A DNA stretch of 64,000 nucleotides from an uncultured Nitrososphaeraceae archaeon (GCA_963729045.1 CAVSMN010000018.1:64001-128000); one strand, 5' to 3'; shown: positions 1,585-52,125, numbered from the stretch's first letter. Notes: generated by a model from the letters alone, not told the origin. Translations and numbers: made by a program.

Positions 1585-4566
1585 TTAAACTTTGAAATCG
1601 GAAATGCGTTCAAGAATTTCTTCAAGATTTTGCTTGTGTGATAAAATATCCTTCCATGGATCTATTTTTCTCTTATAAAGGTCAGGTACTGTCTTTATTG
1701 TAAAATCGGTAGGGATAATGTCTACCAGTTCTTCCCATATTAGTGGAACTGAAACCGTCGCATCTTCTACCGGTCTTGTTGAAAAAACAGACGCCAGTGT
1801 TTTCCCAATAGAATTTTGATTATAATCTAAAAATACTTTTCCTTTTCTATCCGTTGTTTTCCATTCTGTAGTAATTTGACCAGGATTGCGTTTATTCAGG
1901 ATTTGAGATATTACTCGGGCAAATTCCCTCGTTTGCTTGTATGTATACATGTTAATTACTGGTAGGAATATGTGCAATCCTGTTTTTCCCGAAGTTTTAA
2001 CATATGATTTTATATTCAATTCATTAAAAATATCTTCCAAACCTAGAGCAATTTCCACTGTCGTTCTAAAAGCAGCTAAACTATAGGCTGGTTCCTTTGA
2101 TTCATTTTTATTATCAATGTTTATGTATGGATCCAAATCAAAAACTATAAAATCTGGATAATTTAATCCACATTCTTCCGTTTCTATTACATCCATTTTA
2201 TTGCATTGATCATAATCATTAACCCGACTATTCCATGGATGTATTTCAATACATCCCAAATTCACAAGCCATAGTAAAGTTTCCTTGTTATTACATACTA
2301 TATAGTTGATCTCATCATTATTTGATTCTGAATATACCTTTACTGTTCTAACATAGTGTGGTTTTATATTTTTCCAATCCTTTTGATAAAATGCTTTTCC
2401 ATATATTCCATCTGGATACCTACTAAGAGAGATGGGCCGGTCTTTAAGATAAGGTAGAAGAAGTTCGCTTATTTTATCGTAGTATTCCATTAAATCTCCT
2501 TTTGTAATAGCTGGACGATATTTTGTTGCGCTCCAAAACTCCTTTTTCAAATTGGAAAATTGTTGGTCAAGTTTAGTTATGGGATCACCGTTCTTATTAT
2601 TGGTTATTTTTAAGTCATTATCATCTTCATCCTTCTCTATGGTATCTGCAAACTTTGAATTTGTAAGACTTGAAATTTCAATGACACATTGGTATGGCGG
2701 CTTGTCTTCTCTAATTCTTAGAAATATAGGTGCCCGCATTATCTTGTTACAGGTCCAATTATTGAATTTCACTTCTACTACTGTTATGGGTCTTACCCAT
2801 ACTGTTTCCCTGTTAAGATATGGAATGTAATCAACAGGACAATATGGAATTTCTATTTCTCTTAGTTTTTTATGAATTAAGGAGAGGCTTTCAAAACTAA
2901 ATCCACTACCCGTATGACCTATGAATCGTAAGTTACTAATGTTATTTTTGGAATTGTCATTATTATTATTGGTATTAGTATGAATATCGTTTTGAGTATT
3001 ATCGATTGCCGCAAGTAAGAGAGATCCAAAATAATTCTTTCGGTTGCCTTCACCCCTTGTATAGCCTATCACCAAACAGTCCTGGGTTTTGATATTTTTT
3101 ATTTTAAGCCAGTCTCTTGTACGGATACCAGAATGATATTTGCTGTTCCTCTGTTTTCCAATTATCCCTTCCAAGCCCATCCTCTTTATGGTCTGAAAAA
3201 CATCTATCCCAAATTCCTCGACAAAGTCAGATATTCGTATTTTTGAGTTCTCTTTCTTAACCAGGTTGACTAGTATCTTTCTTCTTTCTGCAAATGGTAG
3301 CTGCATGAGGTTATTGTTGTCTAAACATAATATGTCGAACACATAATAAACTGCCGGATAATGTTCAGACAAAATTTCAATACTCTTTATAGAATCAACA
3401 TTCATCCTTTTTTGATGGTTTTGAAAATCGGGGTATCCATCATTATCTAAAATAACAATTTCCCCATCCAATATGACAAAGTCTTTGAACATATCTTCTT
3501 TTAGGGCACTTTTAAAAGTGTTCTCAAGTTCAGGATAGCGTTGAGTAATAGTATCACCTACACGTGATTTAATCGTGCAAGTTTTATTTAGCCTATCCAC
3601 AAGAGTGATAGCCCTTACCCCATCCCACTTTATTTCAAATATCCAATCCTTATTGTTAAATGGTTTATCCGTAAGAGACGGTAACATAGGTTTTATTCCT
3701 TCAAAGCACATTTGTTTTAAGGATCGATTAGCAGATGCCAGATTCATAGTGTCAAGACTATGATCCTCCAATTTATCCAGTATATCTGGATTCTCTGGGA
3801 TCTCCGCAGAGTATTTTATGATATTGTTGTCAACTTTTACATCTTTTTTTAGAGTCTTGCTGGATTTGTATTGCATTAAATCTCTATTTTTTTTGCCTGT
3901 TAACACCGATTCAGGTCTACTCTCTGTTATTTCTTTTTCACCATTCGTGTCGCCGTTGTTTGAGCCACAAGCAAAATCATCCTTTAATTTAATTAATAAC
4001 CACTGATTTTTGGTCCTAGTTTTCACCAAAGAAAATTTGCCTCTTAATTTCTGTCCATATAATACAAACGTAATCTTTCCATATTTTTTTTCTAGCTCAG
4101 ACACGTCTAAACCTTCTGGGATATCCTCTTGGTGTTCTTTCGCAGAATATTTCGTTAAAGATCTTTTTTCCAAGCTGTATTCACCAATATCCCATACTAT
4201 TACAGTTCCAGCACCGTAGTTTCCTTCAGGGATAACTCCTTCAAATGACAAGTAATCCACAGGGTGATCTTCTGTTTGTATTGCCAACCTCTTTATGGAT
4301 GGATCCAGCGATGGTCCCTTAGGGACGGCCCAGGATAAGAGAACATCCTCCTTAATAGATTCCAATCTAAAATCATAATGCAATCTTGTCGCTTCATGTT
4401 TCTGGACCACAAACCGAGGTCTTGATTTTGATTGGTTAAGATCGTCAGTTGAGATGATTGCATCGCCTGGAGCTGGAAAATTTTCTTTACTCAGATTGTT
4501 ATTTCCAATGGGCTCAGGAGATGCCTTAAAATTCCTTTTCTTCCTGTACTCGTCTAACATGTCCAA
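1585..4566 (-). CDS. ligD: LigD multifunctional NHEJ enzyme: phosphoesterase - ATP-dependent ligase - primase/polymerase
   Basis: PE motifs HYDFRLE, SWAVPKG, EDHP, YGAG; ligase EIKWDGVR, LDGEI, EGIIGK, WLKIK; Pol RYPDG..FYQK, FDLDP, KTSGKTGLH, DYNQN. Confidence 0.95.
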   Translation of the reverse strand: MDMLDEYRKKRNFKASPEPIGNNNLSKENFPAPGDAIISTDDLNQSKSRPRFVVQKHEATRLHYDFRLESIKEDVLLSWAVPKGPSLDPSIKRLAIQTEDHPVDYLSFEGVIPEGNYGAGTVIVWDIGEYSLEKRSLTKYSAKEHQEDIPEGLDVSELEKKYGKITFVLYGQKLRGKFSLVKTRTKNQWLLIKLKDDFACGSNNGDTNGEKEITESRPESVLTGKKNRDLMQYKSSKTLKKDVKVDNNIIKYSAEIPENPDILDKLEDHSLDTMNLASANRSLKQMCFEGIKPMLPSLTDKPFNNKDWIFEIKWDGVRAITLVDRLNKTCTIKSRVGDTITQRYPELENTFKSALKEDMFKDFVILDGEIVILDNDGYPDFQNHQKRMNVDSIKSIEILSEHYPAVYYVFDILCLDNNNLMQLPFAERRKILVNLVKKENSKIRISDFVEEFGIDVFQTIKRMGLEGIIGKQRNSKYHSGIRTRDWLKIKNIKTQDCLVIGYTRGEGNRKNYFGSLLLAAIDNTQNDIHTNTNNNNDNSKNNISNLRFIGHTGSGFSFESLSLIHKKLREIEIPYCPVDYIPYLNRETVWVRPITVVEVKFNNWTCNKIMRAPIFLRIREDKPPYQCVIEISSLTNSKFADTIEKDEDDNDLKITNNKNGDPITKLDQQFSNLKKEFWSATKYRPAITKGDLMEYYDKISELLLPYLKDRPISLSRYPDGIYGKAFYQKDWKNIKPHYVRTVKVYSESNNDEINYIVCNNKETLLWLVNLGCIEIHPWNSRVNDYDQCNKMDVIETEECGLNYPDFIVFDLDPYINIDNKNESKEPAYSLAAFRTTVEIALGLEDIFNELNIKSYVKTSGKTGLHIFLPVINMYTYKQTREFARVISQILNKRNPGQITTEWKTTDRKGKVFLDYNQNSIGKTLASVFSTRPVEDATVSVPLIWEELVDIIPTDFTIKTVPDLYKRKIDPWKDILSHKQNLEEILERISDFKV

Positions 4567-6029: not shown

Positions 6030-6176
6030 TGAAATATTCCGAATATTTTCACTAAGGGTATGGAGTTTTTGCCCCGATTATAATCACAGAATCAAGCAAC
6101 TTAATTTGCTTTTTGTCTTTGAGTTTACCTTTCACATATTCTGTTAACCTATAATCAGTTGAAGGTTTGATCTTAT
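6030..6176 (-). pseudogene. Decayed HisKA (histidine kinase) fragment
   Basis: Broken minus-strand frames give LTEYVKGKLKDKKQIKLLDSVI and KLHTLSENIRNIS, aligning with LTEYVRDKTKDVHHMELLDRVV..KLSYLNEKILDVT of the neighbouring kinase. Confidence 0.65.
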
Positions 6177-8162: not shown

Positions 8163-9030
8163 AATAGTTCTTGATGTATGTTTCTATTTTAAAGGTTAAA
8201 CAATTAATAATTCGCGACGGTTTTTACATGGAGAAATAATCACACTCGACAAGTGATTATGACTAAACTTTAGTCTACTGATTTAAATTTGTTGGTAACT
8301 TCTGTATCATCATCATAAATCTAGTTTATGACCTCAAATATGACTTGCTAATTCTATATAAGAATAAAGGTTTTCTGTCACAAGATGTACAAATTAAATG
8401 TAATATAAAATATAAAATTTTGCCATATCATAATTACTATTATATCGTCATGGGCCGCGGGTTGCCTTTGTTCCTTTTCCTTGTTGTAATTATAACTTGG
8501 AGTTTGGTTCTTTTTATCATCCCGTAAATATTTGAGAAATATATTTTATATATGTTTTATCACAAAACATCAATACATTCAAACATATGATTTCTTTTAT
8601 GTGAAAAAAATTAGCAATATTTAGTAAATTATTCAAAAATATACATTAGTTAAGGAGCCATCATTTGGTCACATCTATTACTCCATTTTCTATTAATATG
8701 GAAGTAAACGAAATACGAAAATTATAGGAAAGAGACTTGGATGACATACGTGTCCTACTCCTTCAGAAATGATATGGAGAATCTTTTTTATTAAGAGTAA
8801 AATCTTCGTTGCGTTATTTATCATTTTTATCAATTCATGATTTAAGATGAAAGAAGTCCGTAGTCGACGAAAGTATTTGATCAAATATTAGAGGATTTAA
8901 CAGGAGGATCATTAACAGGCACGCAGTCATGTTCATACTGTTGATGCCACGTCAAACTTGACATCTAAATTAATTTGATAAAGTCTAAATTATATAAACC
9001 TGAAGATGACAAGTTTATCCTAACCGCCTA

Positions 9031-9267: not shown

Positions 9268-9515
9268 ATGACATTCATTTACATTATCGGATTTAAGGCA
9301 TCCTTATTTTTCTTATAAAGAAAGATAATCGAACAATAATACTTCAGTCATGATGATTTATTCGGACATTTAGATCTACCTGATTCTGTGTATATGCTGT
9401 TGACATGATTTTTTTTCTATAACAGGTTTAGTTATTACTCGCCCGTAGGGACCAACTTCCTTGTTTTATTGGGATTTTATCCAAAGAAAAAAAAGATTGT
9501 GTCAGCTAAGTAAAA

Positions 9516-15159: not shown

Positions 15160-15328
15160 TTTTCATTGTTTATCTAAACCTTATTTTCATTAACTATAAA
15201 TATTTTTAGCTTTAAACCAGGTTATCGATTACTAGACCAACTAGAGTCTAGGAGTCAAATTGATACTTTTTACTGATATCAATGTATAATGATTACGATT
15301 AATGTCTAGTTGATCACATATTGATAGT

Positions 15329-15373
15329 AGTTCTCATTCGTGGGGATCATGTTTCCTGCGGTATTAGGATTAT
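15329..15373 (+). repeat. Dispersed double-hairpin repeat, copy 1
   Basis: AGTTCTCATTCGTGGGGATCATGTTTCCTGCGGTATTAGGATTAT. Confidence 0.7.
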
Positions 15374-15562
15374 AATGCAAATATGGACATTTGATTTCAA
15401 AAAGAATTCGACAGGCTAGATAAGCTAGAAAAAAGTTACATCCTTACCTATTATTGCAATTGCAATTCTAGTTTATCTTGCAGAGATATCTACTACACAC
15501 TTATTGGAGGAAAGAGTCAATCTATTACATAAGAACGACCCCATATATCAGCATTACAATAA

Positions 15563-17019: not shown

Positions 17020-17080
17020 CAGTCATGACCAAAGAGCTGCTCTGCGGGGGATTAAGTTCCTAGTGGCACTAGGTTCGAAT
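17020..17080 (+). repeat. Dispersed double-hairpin repeat, copy 2 (with 5' extension)
   Basis: CAGTCATGACCAAAGAGCTGCTCTGCGGGGGATTAAGTTCCTAGTGGCACTAGGTTCGAAT. Confidence 0.75.
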
Positions 17081-17245
17081 AAAGATGGATTGTACATACT
17101 CGCCCTAATCATGCTAAATCTTTTTTAATTAGGTTTTGTCATTTGGTCTAAAGATTTGCGATTATGTTGTGAATTTCAAACTACCATTTCCATCTCTGAG
17201 CATGATACAGAACTGAAATTTATAATACCGTCATGATAATATAAA

Positions 17246-20978: not shown

Positions 20979-22809
20979 ATGAATGAATATGAGAATTTTA
21001 AAACGGCCGATATTGTGGCTGAGGCACTCATAGATTGGGGTGTAGATGTTGTATTTGGGTTACCTGGTGATGGTATCAATGGTTTTATTGAAGCACTAAG
21101 ACAAAGACAAGACAAAATAAAGTTTGTTTTGGTGAGACATGAAGAATCCGCAGCATTTATGGCTTGTGCTTATGCTAAATATACAAAAAAGTTAGGAGTT
21201 TGTGTTGCTACGTCCGGGCCAGGTGCCATACATCTTTTAAACGGATTGTATGATGCCAAACTTGATAGTACACCTGTCCTGGCTATTACAGGTACCACCT
21301 ATTCTGATCTTATTGGCTCCAACTATCAACAAGATGTCAATCTTTTGCAGCTGTTTTCTGATGTGGCTACATATAACAACATGATAAACTCACCAGAACA
21401 TGCTGAAATGGCAGTAGATATAGCATGCAGAAATGCTTTGGGCCGTAGAGGAGTGAGTCACTTGACCATTCCAATAGATGTCCAAGAACAAAAATTAAAA
21501 GGTAAATATTCCCCACATAAGGTAAAGGGCCATACCTCGGATATTTTTAACCATGACGTTATTCCAAGTCCGGAATTACTAAGAAAGGCTGCAAATATTC
21601 TCAACGAGGGAAAAAAGATAGTAATACTGGTCGGTCAAGGAGCTCTAGACGCTAGTGACGAGGTTGTTACCATTTGTGAAATGCTTAATGCCCCTGTAGT
21701 CAAAGCCCTTTTGGGAAAAGCCGTAATTTCCGATTACAGTCCCTACAATCTTGGAGGTATTGGCATGTTAGGAACGAGTCCCGCCAGTGACGCAATGAAT
21801 GAAGCAGATACGATACTAATGATAGGAACATCCTTTCCATATATTGACTATCTTCCAAAACCCGGACAAGCAAGAGGAATTCAAATTGACATTCTACCTG
21901 AGAGAATCGGATTACGATATCCTGTGGATATAGGGTTGGTTGGAGACTCCAAACAAACACTGAATTCTCTGATTCCGCTCCTAAACAAAAGATATAAAGA
22001 AGATAACGAATTTTTAACATCAAAACAAAAAGAAATGAAAAAATGGGCAAGTTTGTTAAAAGAACAAGGCAGTCGGTACTGACAAGCCCATTAAACCTCA
22101 AGTCATAGCTACTGCTGTTTCCAATGAATTAGATGATGATGCCATTATCTCCGTAGATAGCGGAACCAATACTATTTGGGCCGCCCGGTATATTTTTGTT
22201 CATGATAAAATGAAATTTTCGCTCTCGGGTACTCTTGCAACAATGGGATGTGGTTTGCCATATGCAATAGCAGCCAAAATTGCATTTCCAGATAGGCAAT
22301 CGGTGGCTTTTGTCGGGGATGGAGGTTTCACCATGTTAATGGGGGAATTTGCAACAGCAGTTCAATATGATTTACCAATCAAGGTTGTGATAATAAAAAA
22401 TAACACATTAGGAATGATACGGTGGGAACAAATGGCTTTTCTCGGAAACCCCGAATATGCTGTAGAATTTACTCCTATTAATTTTGCAAGTTTTGCTGAT
22501 GAATGCGGTGGAAAAGGCTATACTATTACAGAACCAGGAGATGTAGGACTAATCATTCACCAAGCAATGAAGGAAAAAAAACCCACAATTATTGAAGCGT
22601 ATGTAGATCCATTTGATCCTCCAATGCCTCCAAAAGTGGAACCGGAGTTTGTAAAGAACATTGCGGAATCATTTGCAAGGGGACAACCATATGCCTCCAG
22701 GATAGGCTTAACACTCTATAGAAATCAGATCCATGAAAGATTACGAGGTCTCCATCATCATAATTCATTAAAAGATCATGATCACAAGAGTTCTTATAAT
22801 GAGACATGA
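20979..22809 (+). pseudogene. ThDP-dependent pyruvate oxidase/dehydrogenase (PoxB-like), split by a +1 frameshift near 22075
   Basis: FGLPGDG, RHEESAA, TSGPG; the downstream frame starts TDKPIKPQV at 22078 and carries GDGGF..KNN. Confidence 0.85.
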
Positions 22810-22924
22810 CGAAAAAGGACTACAGGCCGCCGACAAAGAAACACGTAAGAGAGTATCAAGAGAAGACGATAAATCTTGATTAAATTTCCTGCCAATCTTT
22901 TATTTCGATACTATCAATAATATC

Positions 22925-22970
22925 AGTTCTAATCCGTGCGGATTAAGTTCCATGTGGTAGTATGTTCTAG
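22925..22970 (+). repeat. Dispersed double-hairpin repeat, copy 3
   Basis: AGTTCTAATCCGTGCGGATTAAGTTCCATGTGGTAGTATGTTCTAG. Confidence 0.8.
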
Positions 22971-23201
22971 TACGACTTAATAGTAATCAATTTCAAAGTG
23001 GATTAGTTTACCATGTATATGAAATTCCCAGACCAAGTGCTCTGTTACAATATCCGTTTCATTAATGGTAAAAACATCTAGTATTTCTCCTGCTGGTATC
23101 TTAATTACTCCAAAGCCAATATATGGTAGAATGGGTTAAAATTCATATCCGGCATAAGAATCTTGTTGGAATAGATATTTGGGCATGATGATAGAAAGAC
23201 C

Positions 23202-31435: not shown

Positions 31436-31521
31436 TATCCATCTTATTTTTGATTAAGCATCTAATAGATACTCTAGATAATAAGTTTGACATATTTAGT
31501 ATTGATAATCAAATTCAGATT

Positions 31522-31556
31522 AGAGCAGTTCTCATCCATGAGTATTGAGTTCCTTG
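31522..31556 (+). repeat. Dispersed repeat, copy 4 (3'-truncated)
   Basis: AGAGCAGTTCTCATCCATGAGTATTGAGTTCCTTG. Confidence 0.7.
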
Positions 31557-31636
31557 CAATAACAGAATCATGTATAAGCAATTTACAACTGATTTGACAT
31601 TAGGTTTTGGTCTAAAGTTTTAACCATGGCAAGTTA

Positions 31637-37392: not shown

Positions 37393-37937
37393 TTAGAAGA
37401 TCCTGTGTTCCCTTTGCCGAATTTCATTGACAAACTCAAAACATTCTTGCAAATTAGGATTAGTCATGAGTAATAAGACATCAAGGGCGCCTAATAAGTA
37501 TACACGGGATCAAATGTATAGTTGAAATTCATATTGCTTTGTAAGAAAAGAACGATAATAGGCAGAAAGTTGTTCCAGTTGGAGATAAATTGATAGATAT
37601 TGGAATTTTCTTCTTAACCAACATCACAATTAAATCATGTGGATATGATTCAAGATTAAACTCATTCTCTATATATAGTAACATGTGACTTTATAGAATT
37701 AAGATATATACAATACGATAAGACAATGACTGATTCAAAAAAAGAGGTCGAGTTGAATTAAGGTAATATACACACATTTTATCTCTGAAGAGAGACCAAA
37801 CTTTCTTATAAATCAAATACTTGAATTTTTCAAGTAATTATTGTTTGTTAATCCCGAAGTAGAATCTATAGCATATGGAACTAGTCTAGTTATGTTTTAT
37901 ATATTGATTAAAATATATCGTTTTACCTATTAGTAAC

Positions 37938-37983
37938 AGATCTTATCCTTAGAGATAGAGTTCCTAGTGGTAATTTGGCTCAT
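37938..37983 (+). repeat. Dispersed repeat, copy 5 (degenerate)
   Basis: AGATCTTATCCTTAGAGATAGAGTTCCTAGTGGTAATTTGGCTCAT. Confidence 0.55.
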
Positions 37984-43921: not shown

Positions 43922-44507
43922 TCAATTGGTAACATTGAATGAGTTATCAGATGTACTTTCGGGAAATTTTTCTAAAGTCCACTGTTGACCCAAACCATTA
44001 TTTTGTGTCCAAGTTTGTATAAAAGCACCGGGAAGAGGGTTTGATGCTCGAATTTCAAGAACCATGCCATTAAGTTTACTCTTTATAAATCCATCACCAG
44101 TAATTGTCCACTGTTGACCCAAACCATTATTTTGTGTCCAAGTTTGTATATAAGCACCGGGACGTGGATCTGATCCTCGAATTTCAAGAACCATGCCATT
44201 AAGTTTACTCTTTATAAATCCATCACCAGTAATTGTCCACTGTTGACCCAAACCATTATTTTGTGTCCAAGTTTGTATAAAGGCACCGGGACGTGGATTC
44301 TGATCCTGGAATATCAAGAACCAAGCCATTAAGTTTACTCTTTATGAAATAAGATGATTCACTGTATGCATAGTCTAAATGATTTGAAGATAACAAGAGT
44401 ATACTGACTATTCCTAAACCTAAAGATACTGCGGCAATTAAATGATAATTGTATGTATTTCCATTATTTTTTGTCATAATGATTAATACATTATGATATC
44501 GGAACAT
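43922..44507 (-). pseudogene. Secreted ricin-B (QxW) lectin with three 129-bp repeats, +1 frameshift near 44298
   Basis: Signal peptide in ORF 44256..44507 joins repeats FIKSKLNGMVLEI..QTWTQNNGLGQQW; GTGGATTCTG vs GTGGATCTG in the next repeat unit. Confidence 0.85.
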
Positions 44508-44898
44508 ATAAACAAATTATTCATAGGAACCAAGTTAACTATGTTTAACCAATATGGTATTTCTAACGAAATCCTTTGATTCAATTATGAAGTTTGATTT
44601 GATTTGTATTGAAAAGACATATCTTTATCTAAATTATGCTTTGTATTTACCATATCACACCAGGTCATCAGTATTTAAAAACTTGTTAAATAATCTCTAT
44701 TTTACAATAATGCAAATCAATCCTAGTAGTACAAGTATCAATTCTAGAGAATATAGACTGGAGGTAGAGGTTATAAAGTATAAATGAATCGAAAGTACAC
44801 TTTATCATATAACAATTTTCATGTAAATCTTATTCTAAGGTATTGATCGCATTTTATTATACTTATATTATGTCCTTCACATTGGACCTAAAAAAATT

Positions 44899-44952
44899 CA
44901 GTCATGAAGTAAACCCATGGGATCAAAGTTCCTAGTGGCACCAAGGTTCTAT
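44899..44952 (+). repeat. Dispersed double-hairpin repeat, copy 6
   Basis: CAGTCATGAAGTAAACCCATGGGATCAAAGTTCCTAGTGGCACCAAGGTTCTAT. Confidence 0.75.
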
Positions 44953-45213
44953 CATACACTAGGCCGATATTTTCCAAATATCATAATTAAAATATTGTCG
45001 ATAAAACATTAGACAATTCAAGATGGTATCAAACTGTGTCTTACCTTTTCAACTTTTGATTATTGTCAATACTTTCTTTTCTTTTTGAGCATAGTATTTG
45101 ACACTAAATCTATATCATGTTCAAAAGACTAAACCTTAAATACTTTTTTCACATTGATTCTAACATGAGGAAACAAAATTTAGGATATTGTTTTACTAAG
45201 AGGGACAAATACC

Positions 45214-45513
45214 ATGGTTAAAGTAGGGCTTTATGTTAAATTGGAAGCAAAACTAGGCAAAGAAGATGAAGTAGAACAGTTCCTCAAAGATGGATTACCA
45301 ATAGTTCAGGAAGAGCCAGATACTGTGGCATGGTTTGCAATTCGCCTAGGACCATCCACTTTTGGAATATTTGATGTTTTTCCAGACGAATCTGGTCGAC
45401 AAGCTCATCTTTCAGGACAAATTGCTGCTGCCCTAATGGAAAAATCTTCGGATCTACTTGCAAGCCCCCCATCTATTGAGAAGATAGATATCATTGCATC
45501 TAAACTTCCATAG
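45214..45513 (+). CDS. Antibiotic biosynthesis monooxygenase (ABM) family protein
   Basis: LEAK.GKEDEVEQFL..EEP.TVAWFA..FGIFD.F.DE.GRQAHL. Confidence 0.88.
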   Translation: MVKVGLYVKLEAKLGKEDEVEQFLKDGLPIVQEEPDTVAWFAIRLGPSTFGIFDVFPDESGRQAHLSGQIAAALMEKSSDLLASPPSIEKIDIIASKLP

Positions 45514-45617
45514 CTGGATCGCTTCTGGATCCAGTTGGGAACCTGTAGGAGAACACTTATTAAAATATCTATTGTTGACTCATTTTTTTAGATGCGGTCT
45601 CGATAATGTAATTTGAT

Positions 45618-45651
45618 TAGAACCTCAATTCGGTCATGCAACGCAGTTCTC
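45618..45651 (+). repeat. 5' fragment of the dispersed repeat
   Basis: TAGAACCTCAATTCGGTCATGCAACGCAGTTCTC; TAGAACC is the reverse complement of the 3' end GGTTCTA. Confidence 0.45.
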
Positions 45652-45950
45652 TTATGAATTAGCAATTCACGGATGGGCCGGTTTTCTTTCTTTTTCTTCT
45701 TCCATAATTACAGTTACGACAATTACTTTCTTAATTTGATCTAATCTGATATAAAATATGCCCTAAGCCGATCAAATCAAATTGCAAATGCAAAACAAAT
45801 TGAATTTGATGATGAATATAAGAATATTTAACATTCACATTATCCGGATTAGGTCATTTTTATGTAATATATTTTCTCTTACTGATTTTCCCTGTACCTT
45901 ACGATTTAACTTTAAATCCTACATAAGGGAATATATAAAGATCATAAAAT

Positions 45951-46952
45951 ATGCGAAAAGGTATTATCTATTGCTCCATGCTTATTTTCTTTTCAATTTC
46001 CTGTATGATTTTTGTAATTTGTGCAGATGCACAATCGCCAACTAACAATAGTAAGGACATCAGTGGTATTTACTTGTCAGACAAGCAGACTATTTATCAT
46101 GTTAAACAAACAAATAATACAGTTTGGATATTAGGGACTGATGCTCCAAATGTTGAGTCCAGCACCATTGCAAACATTTTTAGTGGAACGTTAGAAAATA
46201 ACATTAGCAAGATAACTGGAAAATGGATAGATTCTCCATTATCAAATAATACTAACAGTGGGAATGTTGATTTTAATATTTTGATGAACGACTCAAATAA
46301 TAATATAACTTTAACTAAAATTCCATCAACATCAGGATCAAGCAACGTTTATCCGGCAACTATATTGGCCAAATATGATCCCATTCTTCATGGTCCATTA
46401 ACAATTTATGTGTCAATGGAAAATTTATTGATCAATGAAGCACGTGCTCCTACTTCCGATATTTTATACGTTGGTATAAGCGGTCAAAAGAATAATGACA
46501 ATCCTTTGACCGCAACTAAATACTTGGGAGCTAGAGGAGATGGTGCAAACATAACAACAAACCTAAGAATTGGTCCATTTACATTTAATAATGAAAACGA
46601 TTCCCTTAAAGTAGAAATTTTGGGACTAAATAAGGCAGACAGTACAACATCATTTACATTAATCAACCTTAGAGATACTCTTATTCAACTAATGGAACCA
46701 TCATACAATATTTCTGATCTGGTTCAGGCGACAAACGTCATTAGGTCCTTATCTCCAGGATTAATTCCAGGAGGATGCAACGGTTTGGTATTCATAGATG
46801 AGATACCTCTGTCATCTGAATTTTTAAGAAATTCAACTGCCCTTAACGGAGAACACATTATAGAAAAAACTTATCCTGGAACCACAAGTCCACCCGGATG
46901 TGGACCACCTTCACAGTATATCGTTAAACTATCCATAACTACTCATAGATAA
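45951..46952 (+). CDS. Secreted hypothetical protein
   Basis: Signal peptide, Asn/Ser-rich, C-terminal GC..GCG. Confidence 0.75.
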   Translation: MRKGIIYCSMLIFFSISCMIFVICADAQSPTNNSKDISGIYLSDKQTIYHVKQTNNTVWILGTDAPNVESSTIANIFSGTLENNISKITGKWIDSPLSNNTNSGNVDFNILMNDSNNNITLTKIPSTSGSSNVYPATILAKYDPILHGPLTIYVSMENLLINEARAPTSDILYVGISGQKNNDNPLTATKYLGARGDGANITTNLRIGPFTFNNENDSLKVEILGLNKADSTTSFTLINLRDTLIQLMEPSYNISDLVQATNVIRSLSPGLIPGGCNGLVFIDEIPLSSEFLRNSTALNGEHIIEKTYPGTTSPPGCGPPSQYIVKLSITTHR

Positions 46953-46959
46953 TTCTACA

Positions 46960-47005
46960 AGTTCTCATCCATGAGGATTAAGTTCCCTGTGGTAGCAGGG
47001 TTCTT
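46960..47005 (+). repeat. Dispersed double-hairpin repeat, copy 7 (best preserved)
   Basis: AGTTCTCATCCATGAGGATTAAGTTCCCTGTGGTAGCAGGGTTCTT, starting 8 nt after a stop codon. Confidence 0.85.
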
Positions 47006-48034
47006 ATGTTTTATATTGTGATTAATTATTTAGTGATTAACAAGAAGCAGAATGGTTTATTCTTGATACTCTTTGTTATCATTGGATTATATTCAGTACA
47101 TTTACTAGGTGAATTTTCAAGTGCAAAAGGAAGTGTAACTGGCGGTAATCAAGATAAAGTCTTTGTGATGTACGCTGGATCTCTTGTAAAGATATTTGAA
47201 GATGTACTTGGACCTGCATTTCAAAGCGAATCTGGATATCCATACGTCGGGGAAGGGAAGGGGTCTGTTCAAGTTTCAAATTTGATTAAGGATGGATTTA
47301 GAACACCAGATGTATTTGTTAGTGCTGGAACGGTACCAATGACAAGGCTAATGAATACTACTCCTCCCCTAGTAGATTGGCTTTTAAAGTTTGGATCAGC
47401 CGAAATTGTGATTGCTTACTCGCCCAATAGTCCACACTTTGGTGATTTAGAAAAAGCAAGAATGGGTGAAATTCCATGGTATGAAGTTGTTTCTCAGGAT
47501 GGTTTCAAATTTGGTAGAACAGATCCTGAGTTGGATCCAAAAGGATACTATGGAATTATTACCGCTGAATTAGCAAATTCCTATTACAATGATTCATCTA
47601 TCAAGAATAGAATATTTGGAGAGGATAGAAATCCCAAACAGATATTTCCCGAAGAAACGCTTAAGACAGTGTTAGAAACGGGTTCATTGGATGCAGTCAT
47701 AGCATACAAACATGAGGCCATATCAAGAGATCTTCCCTACATCACTTTACCCAACGAGATCAATCTTGGTGATCCCACATATTCTGATTTTTACAAACAT
47801 GCAAATTACACTTTGCAAGCTGATCAAAAAACAATTTACGGGGAACCAGTTGACTTTTCAATCACTATTCCAAAGACTGTTAAGAATATGGACGGTGCAA
47901 TCTCGTTTGTAAATTTTGTAATTTCCAAAAATGGTTCACAGTTACTAGAAAGTCAGGGACTTAATCCGATCAACATAACATCTGAAGGAAATACCGATGA
48001 TATTCCTTTGTCTATAAAAGAGGCAATTTCGTAG
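47006..48034 (+). CDS. Molybdate/tungstate-binding protein (WtpA/ModA-like)
   Basis: YAGSL, GSV, PDVFVSA, GRTDPELDPKGY, LPNEINLG. Confidence 0.85.
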   Translation: MFYIVINYLVINKKQNGLFLILFVIIGLYSVHLLGEFSSAKGSVTGGNQDKVFVMYAGSLVKIFEDVLGPAFQSESGYPYVGEGKGSVQVSNLIKDGFRTPDVFVSAGTVPMTRLMNTTPPLVDWLLKFGSAEIVIAYSPNSPHFGDLEKARMGEIPWYEVVSQDGFKFGRTDPELDPKGYYGIITAELANSYYNDSSIKNRIFGEDRNPKQIFPEETLKTVLETGSLDAVIAYKHEAISRDLPYITLPNEINLGDPTYSDFYKHANYTLQADQKTIYGEPVDFSITIPKTVKNMDGAISFVNFVISKNGSQLLESQGLNPINITSEGNTDDIPLSIKEAIS

Positions 48035-48067
48035 GAATGCAGTCTTATCCCTTGTTGAGCAAATTTG

Positions 48068-48126
48068 TATGACCGGGTAGCTGTCCTCATCCGTGGGGAA
48101 TAAGTCCCTAGTGGTATTATGGTTAT
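48068..48126 (+). repeat. Dispersed double-hairpin repeat, copy 8
   Basis: TATGACCGGGTAGCTGTCCTCATCCGTGGGGAATAAGTCCCTAGTGGTATTATGGTTAT. Confidence 0.75.
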
Positions 48127-48193
48127 GTTTTAATGCAATTTAATATCAAATCTTATCCACCCTTATTCACTATTAACACGGAATGATGGCCTA

Positions 48194-48217
48194 ATTCTCA
48201 TTCTAGAGAATGAGAAT
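48194..48217. promoter_or_regulatory. Perfect 11-2-11 palindrome upstream of the cupredoxin-like gene
   Basis: ATTCTCATTCT-AG-AGAATGAGAAT followed by TATA-like TTTTATGTA (48221). Confidence 0.65.
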
Positions 48218-48251
48218 AGCTTTTATGTAACTTCAAACTCCCTTTTTATTA

Positions 48252-49072
48252 ATGGATAATAAAAATAATTTATCGAATATACATCTACTTTTAGCTATTG
48301 CTGGTATGTTGGTTTTATCCGGACCCATCTCGTATGTTTTCTCCAATAATGTATTTGCGCAAACAAATTCTACTGATAGTGTTGATGTACAGCCAAATAT
48401 TAATGCAGAAAGCATTTTTAACACCAAAACAATGACGTTAGGCAATAATGTAAAAAATCTTGTTATCCTCATTCCTAATGAAGGTCACCATGCTGCTGGT
48501 GAAGACAATGAAGCCAGATTTTTGGATCAACACTTTGTACCAGAAAATGCTGTAATTAGCACTGGAACTACCGTACAATGGTTTAACGGTGATGCAGGTC
48601 ACGAACGTACAATAGACGTGAAGGACATTGACGGTAGCACTACATTTTTTAACACTGGAGAGATAGTTGATAGTCAAGCATCAAATCCATATTACATTTA
48701 GTAATCCAGGTGTGTATAATTATGAAGCAGAAGGTGACCCAGGTGTAACAATGACTGGTTCTGTAACAGTAGGTAATATCCAATCATCAGTAACGCCGTC
48801 TAGCACAGCCATATCCACAAGTTCAAACTCTAGCAATATTGATACGGTGGGAATTTTGATGGTACCAACGCAAAATATTGATGACTACATCCAACAGATA
48901 ACAGGTGCAGGGATTACTGTTGACAATACATACGACTTTAAAGACTTGAGAGGTGGACAAGAAGGAACAGGTGATACACAAACATTAATTGTATGGACCA
49001 CAGGTGGTAAAGATTTAGGTGAAACACTTTCATTCTTAAGTGGGCTTATCCTCTGAATTACCATATAGTTAA
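48252..49072 (+). pseudogene. Secreted cupredoxin-fold-like protein with two +1 frameshifts (near 48690 and 49043)
   Basis: FVPENAVI..GTTVQWFNGD..H; ITFSNPGVYNY..MTGSVTV; restored C-terminus LSSELPYS*. Confidence 0.75.
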
Positions 49073-49158
49073 TAATTAACTATTTTTTATCAGGTACTTT
49101 TGATACCTCGGATTATTTGACAATTTACAAAATCATAATATGCCAATCTGGTCAAGTC

Positions 49159-49197
49159 GTCATGATTGGGATTAAGTTCCAAGTGGTACAGGGTTAG
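49159..49197 (+). repeat. Dispersed repeat, copy 9 (internal deletion)
   Basis: GTCATGATTGGGATTAAGTTCCAAGTGGTACAGGGTTAG. Confidence 0.7.
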
Positions 49198-49700
49198 GAT
49201 TGTTCTAATCATCCAGTTTGAAAGACAAAGATATCCCATAATGATTAGTACATACACCAACATGTTTAATAACAAAATCCTAGTTGAGAAGTATTAAAGG
49301 CATCAGTATGATGCGGCGCCGTCAACACCATGATTAGTTTTCAAGTCTCATGCTTTTGTGCCTATGACCAATGGAACAAGTAGTTGCGAAGCTATTGCAT
49401 TTGACGATAGACACTTATCACATGAATGTAGCCCTCAATACTATTTCCCTAGGACATTGTAAGAAATTCGTAACTAAAGTTAATAAACGATATACCTAAT
49501 TCATTAGAGAATTATGAAATAATCATTTATTCAATTATTCAAGAATATTTCATCTTTTTTGACAATAATGATACTTAGATTAGAGTTTAGACCAAACTCA
49601 TCGATTTGGCTAAATAATGAATAACAAATAGATCGATGTTAACAAGTTAATAAAGTATGAGCGAAACTTATGCTATCAAATTAATAGTTGCCAAGACCAT

Positions 49701-49725
49701 GGTCCTCATCTGTGCGGATTAGTTC
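49701..49725 (+). repeat. Dispersed repeat, copy 10 (first hairpin only)
   Basis: GGTCCTCATCTGTGCGGATTAGTTC. Confidence 0.6.
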
Positions 49726-50195
49726 TCAATAAACCTTGTGGAATTTAATCTGAAATCCAAAAGTTAAAGATTGTTAATCAGAATCAAAAATTATTTTATT
49801 AGATGTGAATCAATCTGCTTTTGTTGAGAAAGAATCAGAGCCATAATAAAGGCGAAATGTCTGGAATGACAGGAATCTGAATTCTCGCCTAAATAAAATG
49901 TCAGGAATAACCTTATGTCATGCTTTTTCTTAAATCATGTTATAATTTGAAATCCGCAATAGAAAGAGAAAATGTCCGACCTTTCATTCTCTTTTCAAAA
50001 TCAATGGATAACAAAACAACCCGAGAAGATTACACTTTTTGAATTTTCTACATGATCTGTCATTAATAATGATAAAGAGTGATTCTAATAATAGTTGAGT
50101 TGAATAGTTATTGTTGCCCAAATGGTCTTGCCTGACTTATAAAACTCTGAGCCTATGCAAAGGCCATTGAGAAAGTCTTTATTGAAATTGTCTCT

Positions 50196-51447: not shown

Positions 51448-52125
51448 GGCGCTGTTAACTTAGGCGTTTAGCACTTCCTTGTTGTGTATTTTTACAAAAA
51501 GATTCAACCAGTTTTTGACATGATTTAGTTTACACTTCTCTTTACTACATGGAAAGTAATCGTCAAATCCTTCAGTTCGATCCTTGAAATACTGCATTGT
51601 TCTTTCTATCAGGCTTTTCTCTAATGAGGAATGAAAATGGTGTTTTAGTTTTAGGAATCTACAAGCTATTGGGTACCATGTTCCCAATCTGTAGATATAG
51701 AATGTTTTCCATGAATCTTGACCAAACCTGAGAGAAACCTTTCTGCTATTAGCATGTTCCTCTTCTTAGATATGGATAGTGCGAGAATCTGCCTATTTTC
51801 TGGCTCGATTGCTGCCCATAACCAGGTGTATTCAGAGCCGACTTTTATTAATGTCTCATCAATGATGTATTCTGATATTTTTGTTCTTCTTGTTGAAAAC
51901 CTTTCGAGGTTTATACTTTTAAATCCAATTCCAAATTGCAACGTGACTTCTATTGATAACATGTAAAAAGGACAATGCTTTGACAGAATTTCTGAGCGAT
52001 AAACCAAGAAAGTACAAATAAAGACCATGGTAAATATGCTCTGAAGATATTCTCTTTCTTTTACTTAACATAACAGAAATAAAGCATCTTTAAGCTAAAG
52101 ATTTATAGTTAAGTTAACAGGATCC
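51448..52125 (-). mobile_element. IS6-family insertion sequence with inactivated transposase
   Basis: Inverted repeats CTGTTAACTTA (51452) / TAAGTTAACAG (52110) with GG..CC termini; flanking TGTGATc / TGTGATt duplication; IIDETLIKV, LWAAIEP, STD, IERTMQYFKDRTE; nonsense and frameshift lesions; ATG at 52071. Confidence 0.9.

Follow-up and report, generated by a model that had tools for sequence, protein, structure and literature searches.

Repeats between unrelated genes in a Nitrososphaeraceae genome as probable attachment sites of elements integrated in tandem at tRNA-Lys genes

The stretch of DNA analysed here (the window) comprises 64,000 nucleotides of contig C18 of an uncultured Nitrososphaeraceae archaeon, the closest named relatives of which bear the name Candidatus Nitrosocosmicus. 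Window coordinates are contig C18 coordinates minus 64000. Four to five ORFs lie from 45214 to 49056, all on the plus strand and on the same strand as the repeats found among them (Table 1). The WtpA/ModA-like binding protein proposed by an earlier, sequence-only reading of this DNA was confirmed as a solute-binding protein (SBP_bac_11), as was the absence of a permease gene beside it. The ORF labelled as an ABM monooxygenase in that reading found no Pfam support even at E<=1, and the cupredoxin-like label was weakly supported through the intact 272-aa orthologue of genome G032 only (Copper-bind, E 0.0062, 17.4 bits, under the 21.2 cut-off, a weak plastocyanin/azurin-family match), the window copy of this gene being split. 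ARAGORN found no tRNA genes in the window.

Table 1. Repeat copies, genes, and variable segments in the window (window coordinates)
Feature	Position	Strand	Evidence
Weak att-type site (arm + tRNA-Lys-like end)	9432..9497 (C18 73432-73497)	+	nhmmer E 0.012
Att-type site	15312..15389	+	nhmmer E 1.6e-07; synteny: orthologous site G032 130748
Att-type site	17023..17099	+	Core match, nhmmer; block found at 295.7 kb in G032 begins inside site (distance 0)
Att-type site	22904..22986	+	Core match; nhmmer E 3.9e-11
Weak att-type site at synteny break; G032 7.5 kb longer here	31520..31565	+	nhmmer E 0.013
Att-type site	37919..37983	+	Core match; nhmmer E 6.6e-07
1.0-kb segment missing from G032 and G037	44869..45877	+	Junctions read from sequences
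Degenerate site, 46 nt within 5' end of segment 44869..45877	44919-44967	+	nhmmer E 0.003
99-aa ORF without family assignment, in segment 44869..45877	45214-45513	+	Pfam
333-aa ORF, hydrophobic N-terminus	45951..46952	+	No family found (Pfam)
Att-type site	46945..47017	+	Repeat search, core match, nhmmer; metagenome contigs diverge at 46969, 47002
Solute-binding protein gene, SBP_bac_11, no adjoining permease	47006..48034	+	E 1.1e-23
Att-type site	48077..48152	+	Repeat search, core match; nhmmer E 2.4e-11
Split gene, one extra base at 48689	48252..49056	+	Contigs of 3 runs without extra base; segment missing in G031
Att-type site	49134..49222	+	Repeat search, core match; nhmmer E 3.2e-06
Partial site, 5' half	49701..49725	+	Repeat search; contigs of 2 runs jump 49698 -> ~50022

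The core of the repeat, GGATTAAGTTCCNNGTGGTA, matched six times in the window (17049, 22940, 37953, 46975, 48097, and 49169), always on the plus strand, against 0.04 matches expected, and none of 100 shuffles reached six. A repeat search of the window returned families at 46975/48097/49169 and at 46961/48083/49702. Copies were recovered at or near the places where the sequence-only reading had put them, but the one at 44899 is degenerate, with one extra base, and the one at 49701 consists of the 5' half only; a supposed repeat fragment at 45618 was recovered by no tool and by eye resembles the 5' part only. The array is not confined to 44899..49725 as that reading had it, since nhmmer found 26 copies on contig C18 (E<0.05) and about 35 genome-wide (E<1e-4). 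The repeat is short (~58 nt), intergenic, and multi-copy, and its 13-nt core is at least 90% conserved in an alignment of 34 copies (the 35 with E<1e-4 minus one bearing an internal insertion). It was present in all same-genus genomes searched and almost absent elsewhere.

The proposed co-orientation of genes and repeats held within 45-49 kb but not elsewhere on contig C18, where genes lie on both strands and repeat orientation does not track them. Copies in the 45-49 kb stretch, co-oriented with the genes and 8-50 nt from gene ends, might suggest a structured small RNA or a transcript-level signal (terminator or leader) belonging to the adjacent genes, and the plus strand does fold somewhat better with RNA parameters (mean -10.2 vs -5.3 kcal/mol). 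We nevertheless hold such a signal to be very improbable, given that copy orientation is independent of genes contig-wide, that the mean folding z is just -0.87, and that RNAalifold gave one 5-bp hairpin at -2.45 kcal/mol. A second candidate hairpin showed no covariation beyond shuffles (143 of 500 scored as high), and pairing in one shifted register was at least as good. The Rfam search was empty, both for the window as a whole at the gathering score and for 44800-49800 at E<=10. A folded RNA or single-strand DNA site was rejected on the weak folding z, the lone hairpin, the lack of covariation, and the empty Rfam search.

Each copy proved to consist of a conserved arm of about 30 nt and, attached to it in reverse complement, the final 8-17 nt of a tRNA-Lys gene. 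On the tRNA strand, the arm (reverse complement of AAGTTCC..TGGTA..GGTTC) comes first and the tRNA-derived 8-17 nt come second, extending from AAT in the T-loop through the 3' end. In the copy C18_8174, the 17 nt preceding AAG match the reverse complement of the tRNA-Lys(TTT) end at 16 of 17 positions, and the copy C21_60638 matches tRNA-Lys(CTT) at 16 of 17. When the 34 copies were compared with the ends of 31 tRNAs, 16 matched Lys(TTT) best, 7 Lys(CTT), 6 Arg(GCG), and 5 another tRNA. At six places the tRNA-Lys(TTT) end is followed by a second arm family, oriented like the main family; the tRNA end matches exactly over 15 nt (GGGCCCGTGGGGATT) in two of the six copies shown, the rest having one mismatch or being less complete. 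This second family also occurs at G032 317566, 21.5 kb from the tRNA. Two observations count against a tRNA-derived origin: most array sites have ACGCGCCC in place of the ACGGGCCC of the tRNA, and the commonest subfamily shares just 11 nt with the tRNA end. A short, intergenic, multi-copy repeat found in one genus only could alternatively be a miniature transposable element (MITE- or REP-like) that spread by transposition and gathered in dispensable DNA. This origin, already disfavoured, has very little to recommend it: terminal inverted repeats are absent, with an internal 5-bp palindrome only; a search of the genome for a Y1 transposase (PF01797) gave none; within arrays the orientation is uniform, and cognate tRNA genes anchor them; and the variable part equals tRNA 3' ends.

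The anchoring was seen in four other genomes, G032, G015, G012, and G007. In each, tRNA-Lys(TTT) marks the end of the GTGGTA-type array and tRNA-Lys(CTT) that of the GTATGGTA-type array. The tRNA was on the strand predicted beforehand in all eight arrays (two per genome), a sense that fits distal attachment sites. The G032 island carries about 35 sites over about 193 kb, 35 of 35 on one strand, with a median spacing of 2.2 kb and 16 of 34 spacings below 2 kb, and the site score drops with distance from the tRNA (Spearman rho -0.60, p 1.5e-4, n=35). Compared with contig C9 of the present genome, G032 carries a 23-kb insertion placed exactly at the 3' end of tRNA-Lys(TTT). Contig C18 shows two opposed arms because it contains an inverted piece of the same island in comparison with G032. 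These arms, together with two arcs in G015 and a strand set by position rather than by genes, would also be expected of a polar chromosomal motif whose strand is set by replication direction. That explanation, likewise already disfavoured, strikes us as scarcely credible: minus-strand copies lie on either side of orc1/cdc6 at 132 kb in G015, plus-strand copies lie on either side of orc1/cdc6 at 564 kb in G032, copies are limited to a few islands, and the opposed arms are an inversion. It was rejected on the absence of a strand switch at orc1/cdc6. The GC skew of contig C18 was uninformative on replication polarity.

Some observations count against the anchoring. Three of seven CTT-type copies in G012 are on the opposite strand; small clusters at 197-208 kb and 2857-2871 kb in G015 and at 656-669 kb in G032 are tied to no tRNA; and in G015 a CTT-type site follows an integrase beside tRNA-Ser(TGA) in an unexpected sense. 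A search for empty sites in other genera and site-poor genomes gave no usable case, as the LigD marker was either on another contig than tRNA-Lys(TTT) or 600 kb away from it.

An integrase gene or fragment adjoins the tRNA, on the same strand, in six of the eight anchored arrays, including both arrays of G015, both of G007, and the TTT array of G012 (a fragment); none was seen directly beside either tRNA-Lys of G032, and one also lies beside the tRNA in G031 C6, outside the eight. The adjoining gene is intact in several genomes. Its protein matched the PHROG_1 integrase (E 1.5e-15) and, weakly, the Pfam Phage_integrase model (19.7 bits), while an integrase profile found nothing among PDB sequences. 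Between the tRNA and the first site, proximal elements that keep an intact integrase span 16 kb in G007 and 23 kb in G015; in G012, which retains an integrase fragment only, the span is 0.9 kb. As the sequence-only reading had noted, the window holds no integrase, and a Pfam scan of the 128 ORFs of contig C18 gave no recombinase. Decayed copies occur elsewhere in the genome, as fragments beside tRNA-Lys(CTT) on C14, as a gene with one stop beside tRNA-Arg(GCG) on C12, and as a fragment at C18 12560-12808. Since only these broken copies were found in the assembly, which is 87% complete, the local array may now be immobile.

Two findings on the integrases count against their role: among about 25 homologues in 5 genomes few adjoin a site, and in G032 the integrase at 323964 is antisense to the tRNA, at a distance of 14 kb. 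The HUH-type enzyme that the sequence-only reading had proposed to look for was rejected, since no HUH/Y1 transposase is present in the genome. A serine recombinase, present as one conserved copy of ~200 aa per genome, has no specific link to the repeat, because three other genera of the family (g14, g15, and g16) carry the enzyme yet gave no repeat match (0 of 8 genomes); it may still be the acting enzyme, as other genera could use other sites.

Comparison with other genomes and with contigs of 24 metagenome runs revealed segments that had been gained, lost, or moved. Where the window has one copy (46945-47017), G032 and G037 have two copies with an extra 1.8-kb segment between them. In G031 and G007, two sites enclose the binding-protein gene in different surroundings, its module being found elsewhere, with edges at sites, in G031, G007, and run X10; G031 is without the segment that follows this gene. 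Metagenome contigs part at both edges of the copy at 46960-47003. Two blocks, C18 81047-83264 and C18 130298-131984, are relocated to G032 295757-297981 and 194418-196099, respectively, with edges at sites in both genomes. Overall, 10 of 83 synteny-block ends fell within 30 nt of a copy, compared with 2.06 expected under a uniform distribution and 4.53 when placed in intergenic DNA only (p ~0.012).

The recombination-bounded modules of the sequence-only reading stand in part, breakpoints being enriched at sites, but not every indel is bounded by them. The remaining 73 of 83 block ends lie more than 30 nt from any site, and the segment 44869-45877 and a 323-nt segment from 49699 have a site near the 5' end only, all of which counts against a site-specific origin, as does a deletion in G039, of whose two edges one is 17 nt away from a site and the second coincides with none. 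A contig joint in run X10 (45559 -> 49600, side 46 nt) touches no site, and the contigs showed no excision product. Core identity of orthologous window-region sites between this genome and G032 was 75/117, a rough ungapped count, compared with ~88% in neighbouring blocks. Among relatives of the binding protein in named genomes, a site adjoins the gene at 4 of 34 loci only, so the family as a whole is not tied to the sites.

Integrons (IntI, attI, and attC cassettes) are one-way arrays of sites that separate unrelated, often single accessory genes, with a tyrosine recombinase at one end, and archaeal integrons have been reported. The present arrays share the one-way order of short sites, a tyrosine recombinase at one array end, and modules that differ between strains. 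They differ in using a tRNA gene for entry, in an integrase that is part of mobile elements, and in having genes co-oriented with sites at 45-49 kb of the window only. attC sites are imperfect palindromes that have conserved inverse core ends and fold as a single strand; the present sites have no attC-type palindrome and no conserved end motifs, bearing out the earlier remark that their ends do not fit; an attC-like single-strand fold was not found on either strand (z -0.36 to -0.87, a 5-bp hairpin only, no covariation). In pdif or Xer modules, 28-bp XerC/XerD-type sites with two 11-bp arms alternate in orientation around the modules, whereas all sites of one of our arrays share an orientation and the consensus holds no such dyad. 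The likeness to integron/attC or pdif architecture drawn by the sequence-only reading did not hold up against the tRNA-Lys 3' ends in the repeats, the arrays anchored at tRNA-Lys, and the integrase adjoining tRNAs.

A working integron-like platform may still be envisaged, in which the element integrases, acting in trans, would take up, excise, and reshuffle single-gene modules that each bring an att site, with tRNA-Lys as the entry and the island as a maintained store rather than a graveyard. The many G032 spacings below 2 kb, the binding-protein gene and the two C18 blocks that differ in location between genomes yet are bounded by sites in each, the conserved 13-nt core, and a gene content like that of integron cassettes (small enzymes and binding proteins) speak for it. 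We consider it distinctly unlikely, as orthologous sites of the window region have decayed relative to G032, site quality drops away from the tRNA, genes occur on both strands relative to sites, only broken integrase copies are present in the assembly, and few relatives of the binding protein adjoin a site. Furthermore, the G012 element has been cut to a fragment by deletion, and short modules therefore arise without cassette mobility. The integrase at the G032 island end was rejected as an integron-like head, since it sits inside the 23-kb insertion at tRNA-Lys(TTT). A more specific version, in which the two tRNA-Lys genes are the entry sites of an integron-like store and attP-like modules of one or two genes are excised and reshuffled by trans integrases of the 16-23-kb elements, is in our opinion doubtful. 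If it were true, ~6% of the chromosome would be a site-specific cassette library, and a large part of the flexible genome in these soil ammonia oxidisers could be explained in this way.

Based on these data, we conclude that the repeats are probably att sites left by integrative elements that a tyrosine integrase inserts, in tandem, into the 3' ends of tRNA-Lys genes. A new element would enter at the tRNA and push older elements outward, and serial entry would build a one-way array of co-oriented sites. As they aged, elements would lose the integrase and most genes, and short segments with unrelated accessory genes on either strand would remain. In at least one subfamily, the sequence normally just after the tRNA is present too, so that internal sites resemble whole attP sites. 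Gain, loss, and relocation of segments would result from recombination between direct att sites, through an integrase supplied in trans or through homologous recombination; both the order of insertion and the enzyme responsible for the rearrangements are inferred. The window locus lies in the old, distal part of the ~200-kb island anchored at tRNA-Lys(TTT), in which most elements are now without an integrase. She and colleagues reportedly described, in 2001-2004, archaeal chromosome segments bordered by direct repeats of tRNA 3' parts and left by trapped integrase-bearing elements, the trapping being said to follow the splitting of an SSV-type integrase gene on integration. In the present elements, by contrast, the integrase gene adjoining the tRNA is intact in several genomes.

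What the sequence-only reading suggested might be an undescribed archaeal gene-capture system would accordingly belong to a described process, tandem accretion at a tRNA gene in which decayed elements keep their att sites (cis-mobilizable elements, CIMEs), as outlined in excerpts of PMC5704250, citing Pavlovic et al. 2004. As given there, CIMEs share with our arrays the integration in a tRNA 3' end (tRNA-Lys in the cited streptococcal case too), the decay to integrase-less, att-flanked segments, the use of the same site by further elements, and co-oriented att sites that part unrelated cargo. They are described there as bacterial and as comprising two or three elements, whereas the present arrays belong to an archaeal genus, hold ~35 sites over ~190 kb with many single-gene segments, and are two in number, each with a site subtype that matches its tRNA-Lys gene. 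No transfer genes were recognised in them. According to excerpts of PMC6563490, cryptic integrated elements of Thaumarchaeota are integrase-defined, mostly below 20 kb (median 17 kb), and found most often at tRNA genes; att sites shorter than 26 bp predominate, and arrays formed by site re-use are mentioned. Our proximal elements of 16 kb (G007) and 23 kb (G015) fit this description, which in its available portions does not include long arrays of integrase-less segments with a conserved arm; the available main text has 0 occurrences of 'Nitrosocosmicus'. Excerpts of PMC3146451 on Dehalococcoides report genomic islands in tandem at the tmRNA gene ssrA, similar in site-specific integration at a single small-RNA gene and different in target gene and host. 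The portions of the Nitrosocosmicus literature on repeats and integrases or tRNA islands that were available gave no description of arrays of this kind.

Because the repeats would be leftover attachment sites of elements inserting beside tRNA-Lys, the locus represents a known kind of genomic island, and the tempting reading as an archaeal integron is replaced by a tested one. The scale, with ~35 sites and ~190 kb at one tRNA in G032, is unusual for archaea. The flexible islands of this genus would be records of serial integration at two tRNA-Lys genes, and the sites offer a ready marker with which such islands can be delimited in genomes or metagenome bins of ammonia-oxidising archaea from soil, insertions ranked by age, and integrase-bearing elements located. 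If the short modules still move, they would constitute a natural site-specific platform in a group without genetic tools.

Between 44.9 and 49.7 kb of the window, copies of one short repeat lie between ORFs that are all on the + strand. The repeat itself, proposed in a sequence-only reading, was borne out, with six matches to the core GGATTAAGTTCCNNGTGGTA (up to three mismatches) in the window against 0.04 expected and none of 100 shuffles getting to six. Three core copies, at 17049, 22940, and 37953, lie far beyond this stretch, and a profile made from 33 seed copies and searched over the contigs of the host genome (2.85 Mb, 22 contigs, 33% G+C) gave 52 matches at E≤10, 35 of them below 1e-4, mostly on C18, the contig that carries the window at 64001-128000, and on parts of contigs C1, C12, C13, C17, and C21. 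The repeat is therefore real, with firm statistical support, and the supposed array is only a piece of something far bigger. At E<0.05, C18 has ten copies below 31 kb, every one on the - strand, and 16 above 73 kb, every one on the + strand. In a crude ORF map of C18 the repeat strand often differs from that of adjacent genes, with + copies at 73432, 128272, and 130162 adjoining - genes and - copies at 6125, 8119, and 25251 adjoining + genes, so the co-orientation of genes and repeats that had been described for the 44.9-49.7 kb stretch is correct there but local only, and does not extend to C18 overall.

By Pfam, the ORFs of C18 are a mixture of small accessory enzymes, regulators, transporters, and binding proteins, with one IS6-type fragment (DDE_Tnp_IS240; window 51448-52100, -), about 650 nt of which is multi-copy in all genomes of the genus that were searched. 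The repeat-free backbone separating the two site arms holds a 990-aa, three-domain LigD (window 1585-4557, -; phosphoesterase, ATP-dependent ligase, and primase-polymerase), near which, at C18 42-62 kb, lie a second ATP-dependent ligase, an H2TH glycosylase, and an AP-endonuclease-like gene. A thiamine-pyrophosphate enzyme is divided between two + ORFs 130 nt apart (window 20979-22079 and 22210-22806), one with the N-terminal and middle domains and the other with the C-terminal domain, and a repeat copy lies directly 3' of it. At window 43977-44363 a 129-nt unit occurs three times in tandem (100, 95, and 64% identity) within a ricin-B-lectin ORF (43922-44329, -). A multi-copy family of 530 nt (79-88% identity; C18 4813-5342, 23902-24435, 41291-41816, and 53437-53961, and three copies on C13) encodes a protein of about 150 aa without a Pfam match and is found in and out of arrays, also in the same-genus genome G032.

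Allowing up to two mismatches, GGGATTAAGTTCCNNRTGGTA was found in 18/18 further genomes of the genus and in 0/12 genomes from other genera of the order, and a reversed-pattern control was near zero. A family-level search recovered the repeat in 5/5 genus genomes, four copies in one genome of the genus g51, single matches in the genera g56 and g60, and none in the remaining 14 genera sampled within the family. The named relatives of one window protein were from Candidatus Nitrosocosmicus or Nitrososphaeraceae.

Read as its reverse complement, the variable stretch on the 5' side of the repeat, as far as GGGATT, corresponds to the 3'-terminal nucleotides of real tRNA genes. The copy at C18 8174 matches tRNA-Lys(TTT) (own contig C9, complement 2999-3091) at 16/17 positions, the C21 copies match tRNA-Lys(CTT) (own contig C14, 114694-114783) at 14-16/17, and one subfamily matches tRNA-Arg(GCG) at 13/17. 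When 31 tRNA ends were compared with 34 of the 35 copies at E<1e-4 (one, with an internal insertion, was left out), the best end was Lys(TTT) for 16, Lys(CTT) for seven, Arg(GCG) for six, and another for five. The copy at 8174 also has the motif AATTTGACTA, which is found 3' of the tRNA-Lys(TTT) gene in the same-genus genomes G015 and G032, so at least that subfamily looks, from its sequence, like a complete attP of arm, tRNA end, and other arm. In a second family, at first taken for an independent 50-nt repeat, a different arm comes after the tRNA-Lys(TTT) end, of which 15 nt match exactly in 2/6 copies; this family occurs in the same arrays and the same orientation as the main repeat. There is a constant base difference between array sites and the tRNA end (ACGCGCCC against ACGGGCCC). 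As for the tRNA genes themselves, ARAGORN assigned a 17-nt intron to the TTT gene, which it named tRNA-Leu(taa) in one genome; the CTT gene is 90 nt long, yet received no intron.

Were the copies distal att sites, every array would have to terminate at its cognate tRNA gene, with the gene and the repeat as written on opposite strands. This expectation, set in advance, held in 8/8 arrays of four same-genus genomes (see table), and the site subtypes were paired with the tRNAs, GTGGTA with Lys(TTT) and GTATGGTA with Lys(CTT). Three more CTT-type copies in G012 are on the opposite strand, small site clusters outside the two arrays were tied to no tRNA, and one CTT-type site, which adjoins an integrase associated with a tRNA-Ser, runs in the sense contrary to expectation.

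Site arrays and their cognate tRNA-Lys genes in four comparison genomes (strand in brackets)
Genome	tRNA	tRNA gene position	Sites
G032	Lys(TTT)	339074-339164 (-)	array 130.7-323.8 kb (+)
G032	Lys(CTT)	1344188-1344277 (+)	array 1354-1443 kb (-)
G015	Lys(TTT)	514164-514255 (+)	array 552-669 kb (-)
G015	Lys(CTT)	2476433-2476522 (-)	array 2413-2453 kb (+)
G012	Lys(TTT)	1175527-1175618 (-)	array 1087-1175 kb (+)
G012	Lys(CTT)	2091279-2091368 (+)	copies 2099-2127 kb (-)
G007	Lys(TTT)	C24 42182-42273 (-)	array C24 5-26 kb (+)
G007	Lys(CTT)	C28 132265-132354 (-)	array C28 14-88 kb (+)

A family of 390-440-aa proteins directly adjoins tRNA-Lys genes on the same strand, at both tRNAs in G015 and G007, in a further same-genus genome (G031), and as a fragment in G012. 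The family matched PHROG_1 'integrase' (E 1.5e-15) and scored 19.7 bits against Pfam Phage_integrase, under the cut-off of 27.1, and a PDB search with a three-sequence profile returned no relative. Its sequences carry the motifs SGIRIGAF, HGFRK, LMGHS, and DSYIR, which we take to be consistent with the catalytic set of tyrosine recombinases. Between the tRNA and the first site lie 16 kb in G007 and 23 kb in G015, beginning in both with an intact integrase gene; the corresponding segment of G012 measures 0.9 kb, has only a fragment of the integrase, and is a direct example of an element decayed to a short module. Compared with contig C9 of the window genome, G032 carries a 23-kb insertion at the 3' end of tRNA-Lys(TTT); the G032 integrase at 324 kb is antisense to the tRNA, at a distance of 14 kb. 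A Pfam search of the window genome's own assembly (87% complete) gave no integrase match, and tblastn located broken copies at C12 401312-402331 (one stop, just 3' of tRNA-Arg(GCG)), C12 98-1097 (frameshift), C14 115089-115637 (just 3' of tRNA-Lys(CTT)), and C18 12560-12808 (adjoining a site).

The same assembly also has, in single copy, a serine recombinase of about 200 aa (C12 250197-250796, +) with a resolvase-type catalytic domain and a C-terminal helix-turn-helix seen by eye. It is kept at 69-81% identity in all seven family genomes that matched, from four genera, and was not found in 19 other families of the order sampled.

The best reading of the locus is tandem accretion at tRNA-Lys. 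Elements with a tyrosine integrase would insert at the tRNA-Lys 3' end, newer ones shifting older ones outward from the tRNA; aged elements would drop the integrase and most cargo while retaining att sites, and recombination between direct sites could then remove or relocate segments. Within the G032 island, sites score lower the farther they lie from the tRNA (Spearman -0.60, p 1.5e-4, n=35), with medians of 21.8 bits below 200 kb and 40.6 bits above, and the sites are spaced at a median of 2.2 kb (16/34 spacings below 2 kb). The window is syntenic with 163-172 kb of G032, in the distal, older part of that island; orthologous sites in the two are strongly diverged, with a rough, ungapped core identity of 75/117. 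The G032 island runs one way, with its 35 sites all on the + strand; the left arm of C18 corresponds to a part of it in inverted orientation, which accounts for the opposed site arms on C18.

The locus was compared across the genus, and junctions were read from the sequences. G032 and G037, a further same-genus genome, are syntenic with the window locus at about 89% identity, and where the window has one copy (46945-47017) both have two, with an extra 1.8 kb between them that holds an oppositely oriented PNPOx-like gene. In G031 the binding-protein gene (SBP_bac_11) is in a different context with a copy on each side, the downstream one joining directly to sequence 3' of the window copy at 49134, so the 48.1-49.2 kb segment is missing from G031; in G007 the gene is likewise in another context. 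Contigs from the metagenome run X10 part from the window on either edge of the 46945-47017 copy, at 46969 and at 47002, and in contigs from X10 and a second run, X2, position 49698 is joined to about 50022, the gap opening 2 nt ahead of a partial copy. Between C18 and the G032 island, 10/83 block ends fall within 30 nt of a copy, against 2.06 expected under uniform placement and 4.53 in intergenic DNA only (p about 0.012). The idea of gene cassettes bounded by the repeat is thus partly right, as segments do differ between genomes at copies, but not every indel edge has one: G032 and G037 lack a 1.0-kb segment (44869-45877) that does not have a copy at both of its edges, a deletion in the same-genus genome G039 (about 44621 to 46943) has one edge 17 nt before a copy and the other without one, and some indels have a site at one end only.

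Two further observations concern assembled sequence. At 48689 the window has one extra base relative to contigs of three runs, which include an RNA library; the base splits a gene that is intact in G032 (272 aa), and is either a strain frameshift or an assembly error. A 5-kb segment that includes two att-type sites occurs three times at 93-96% identity (C18 137871-142963, C1 1659-6755, and C13 4852-9641), the C13 homology beginning within a site and including a 0.7-kb insertion; either true paralogy or a mixture of strains in the assembly may account for it.

In complete genomes the copies are grouped in islands, with a single strand per island. A reading as a marker of replication polarity was rejected, as the strand does not switch at orc1/cdc6, with - copies either side of the gene at 132 kb in G015 and + copies either side at 564 kb in G032. 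A reading as RNA was likewise rejected: folding was unremarkable (best mean z only -0.87; a single 5-bp hairpin of -2.45 kcal/mol in RNAalifold), a second candidate hairpin showed covariation not above shuffles, and an Rfam search of the window gave no match. The analogy with integrons fails its defining tests, with these folding and covariation results and no recombinase among the 54 + 74 C18 ORFs scanned with Pfam, and that with pdif modules fails its own.

Literature listings gave no description of such a process for this genus, and the main text of a study of Thaumarchaeota (PMC6563490) does not mention Nitrosocosmicus. That text describes integrase-defined cryptic elements at tRNA genes in Thaumarchaeota and arrays arising via re-use of one site, and tandem accretion is known in bacteria, where a decayed element with its att sites kept is termed a cis-mobilizable element (PMC5704250). 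The locus is an ordinary but unusually long example of a known process.
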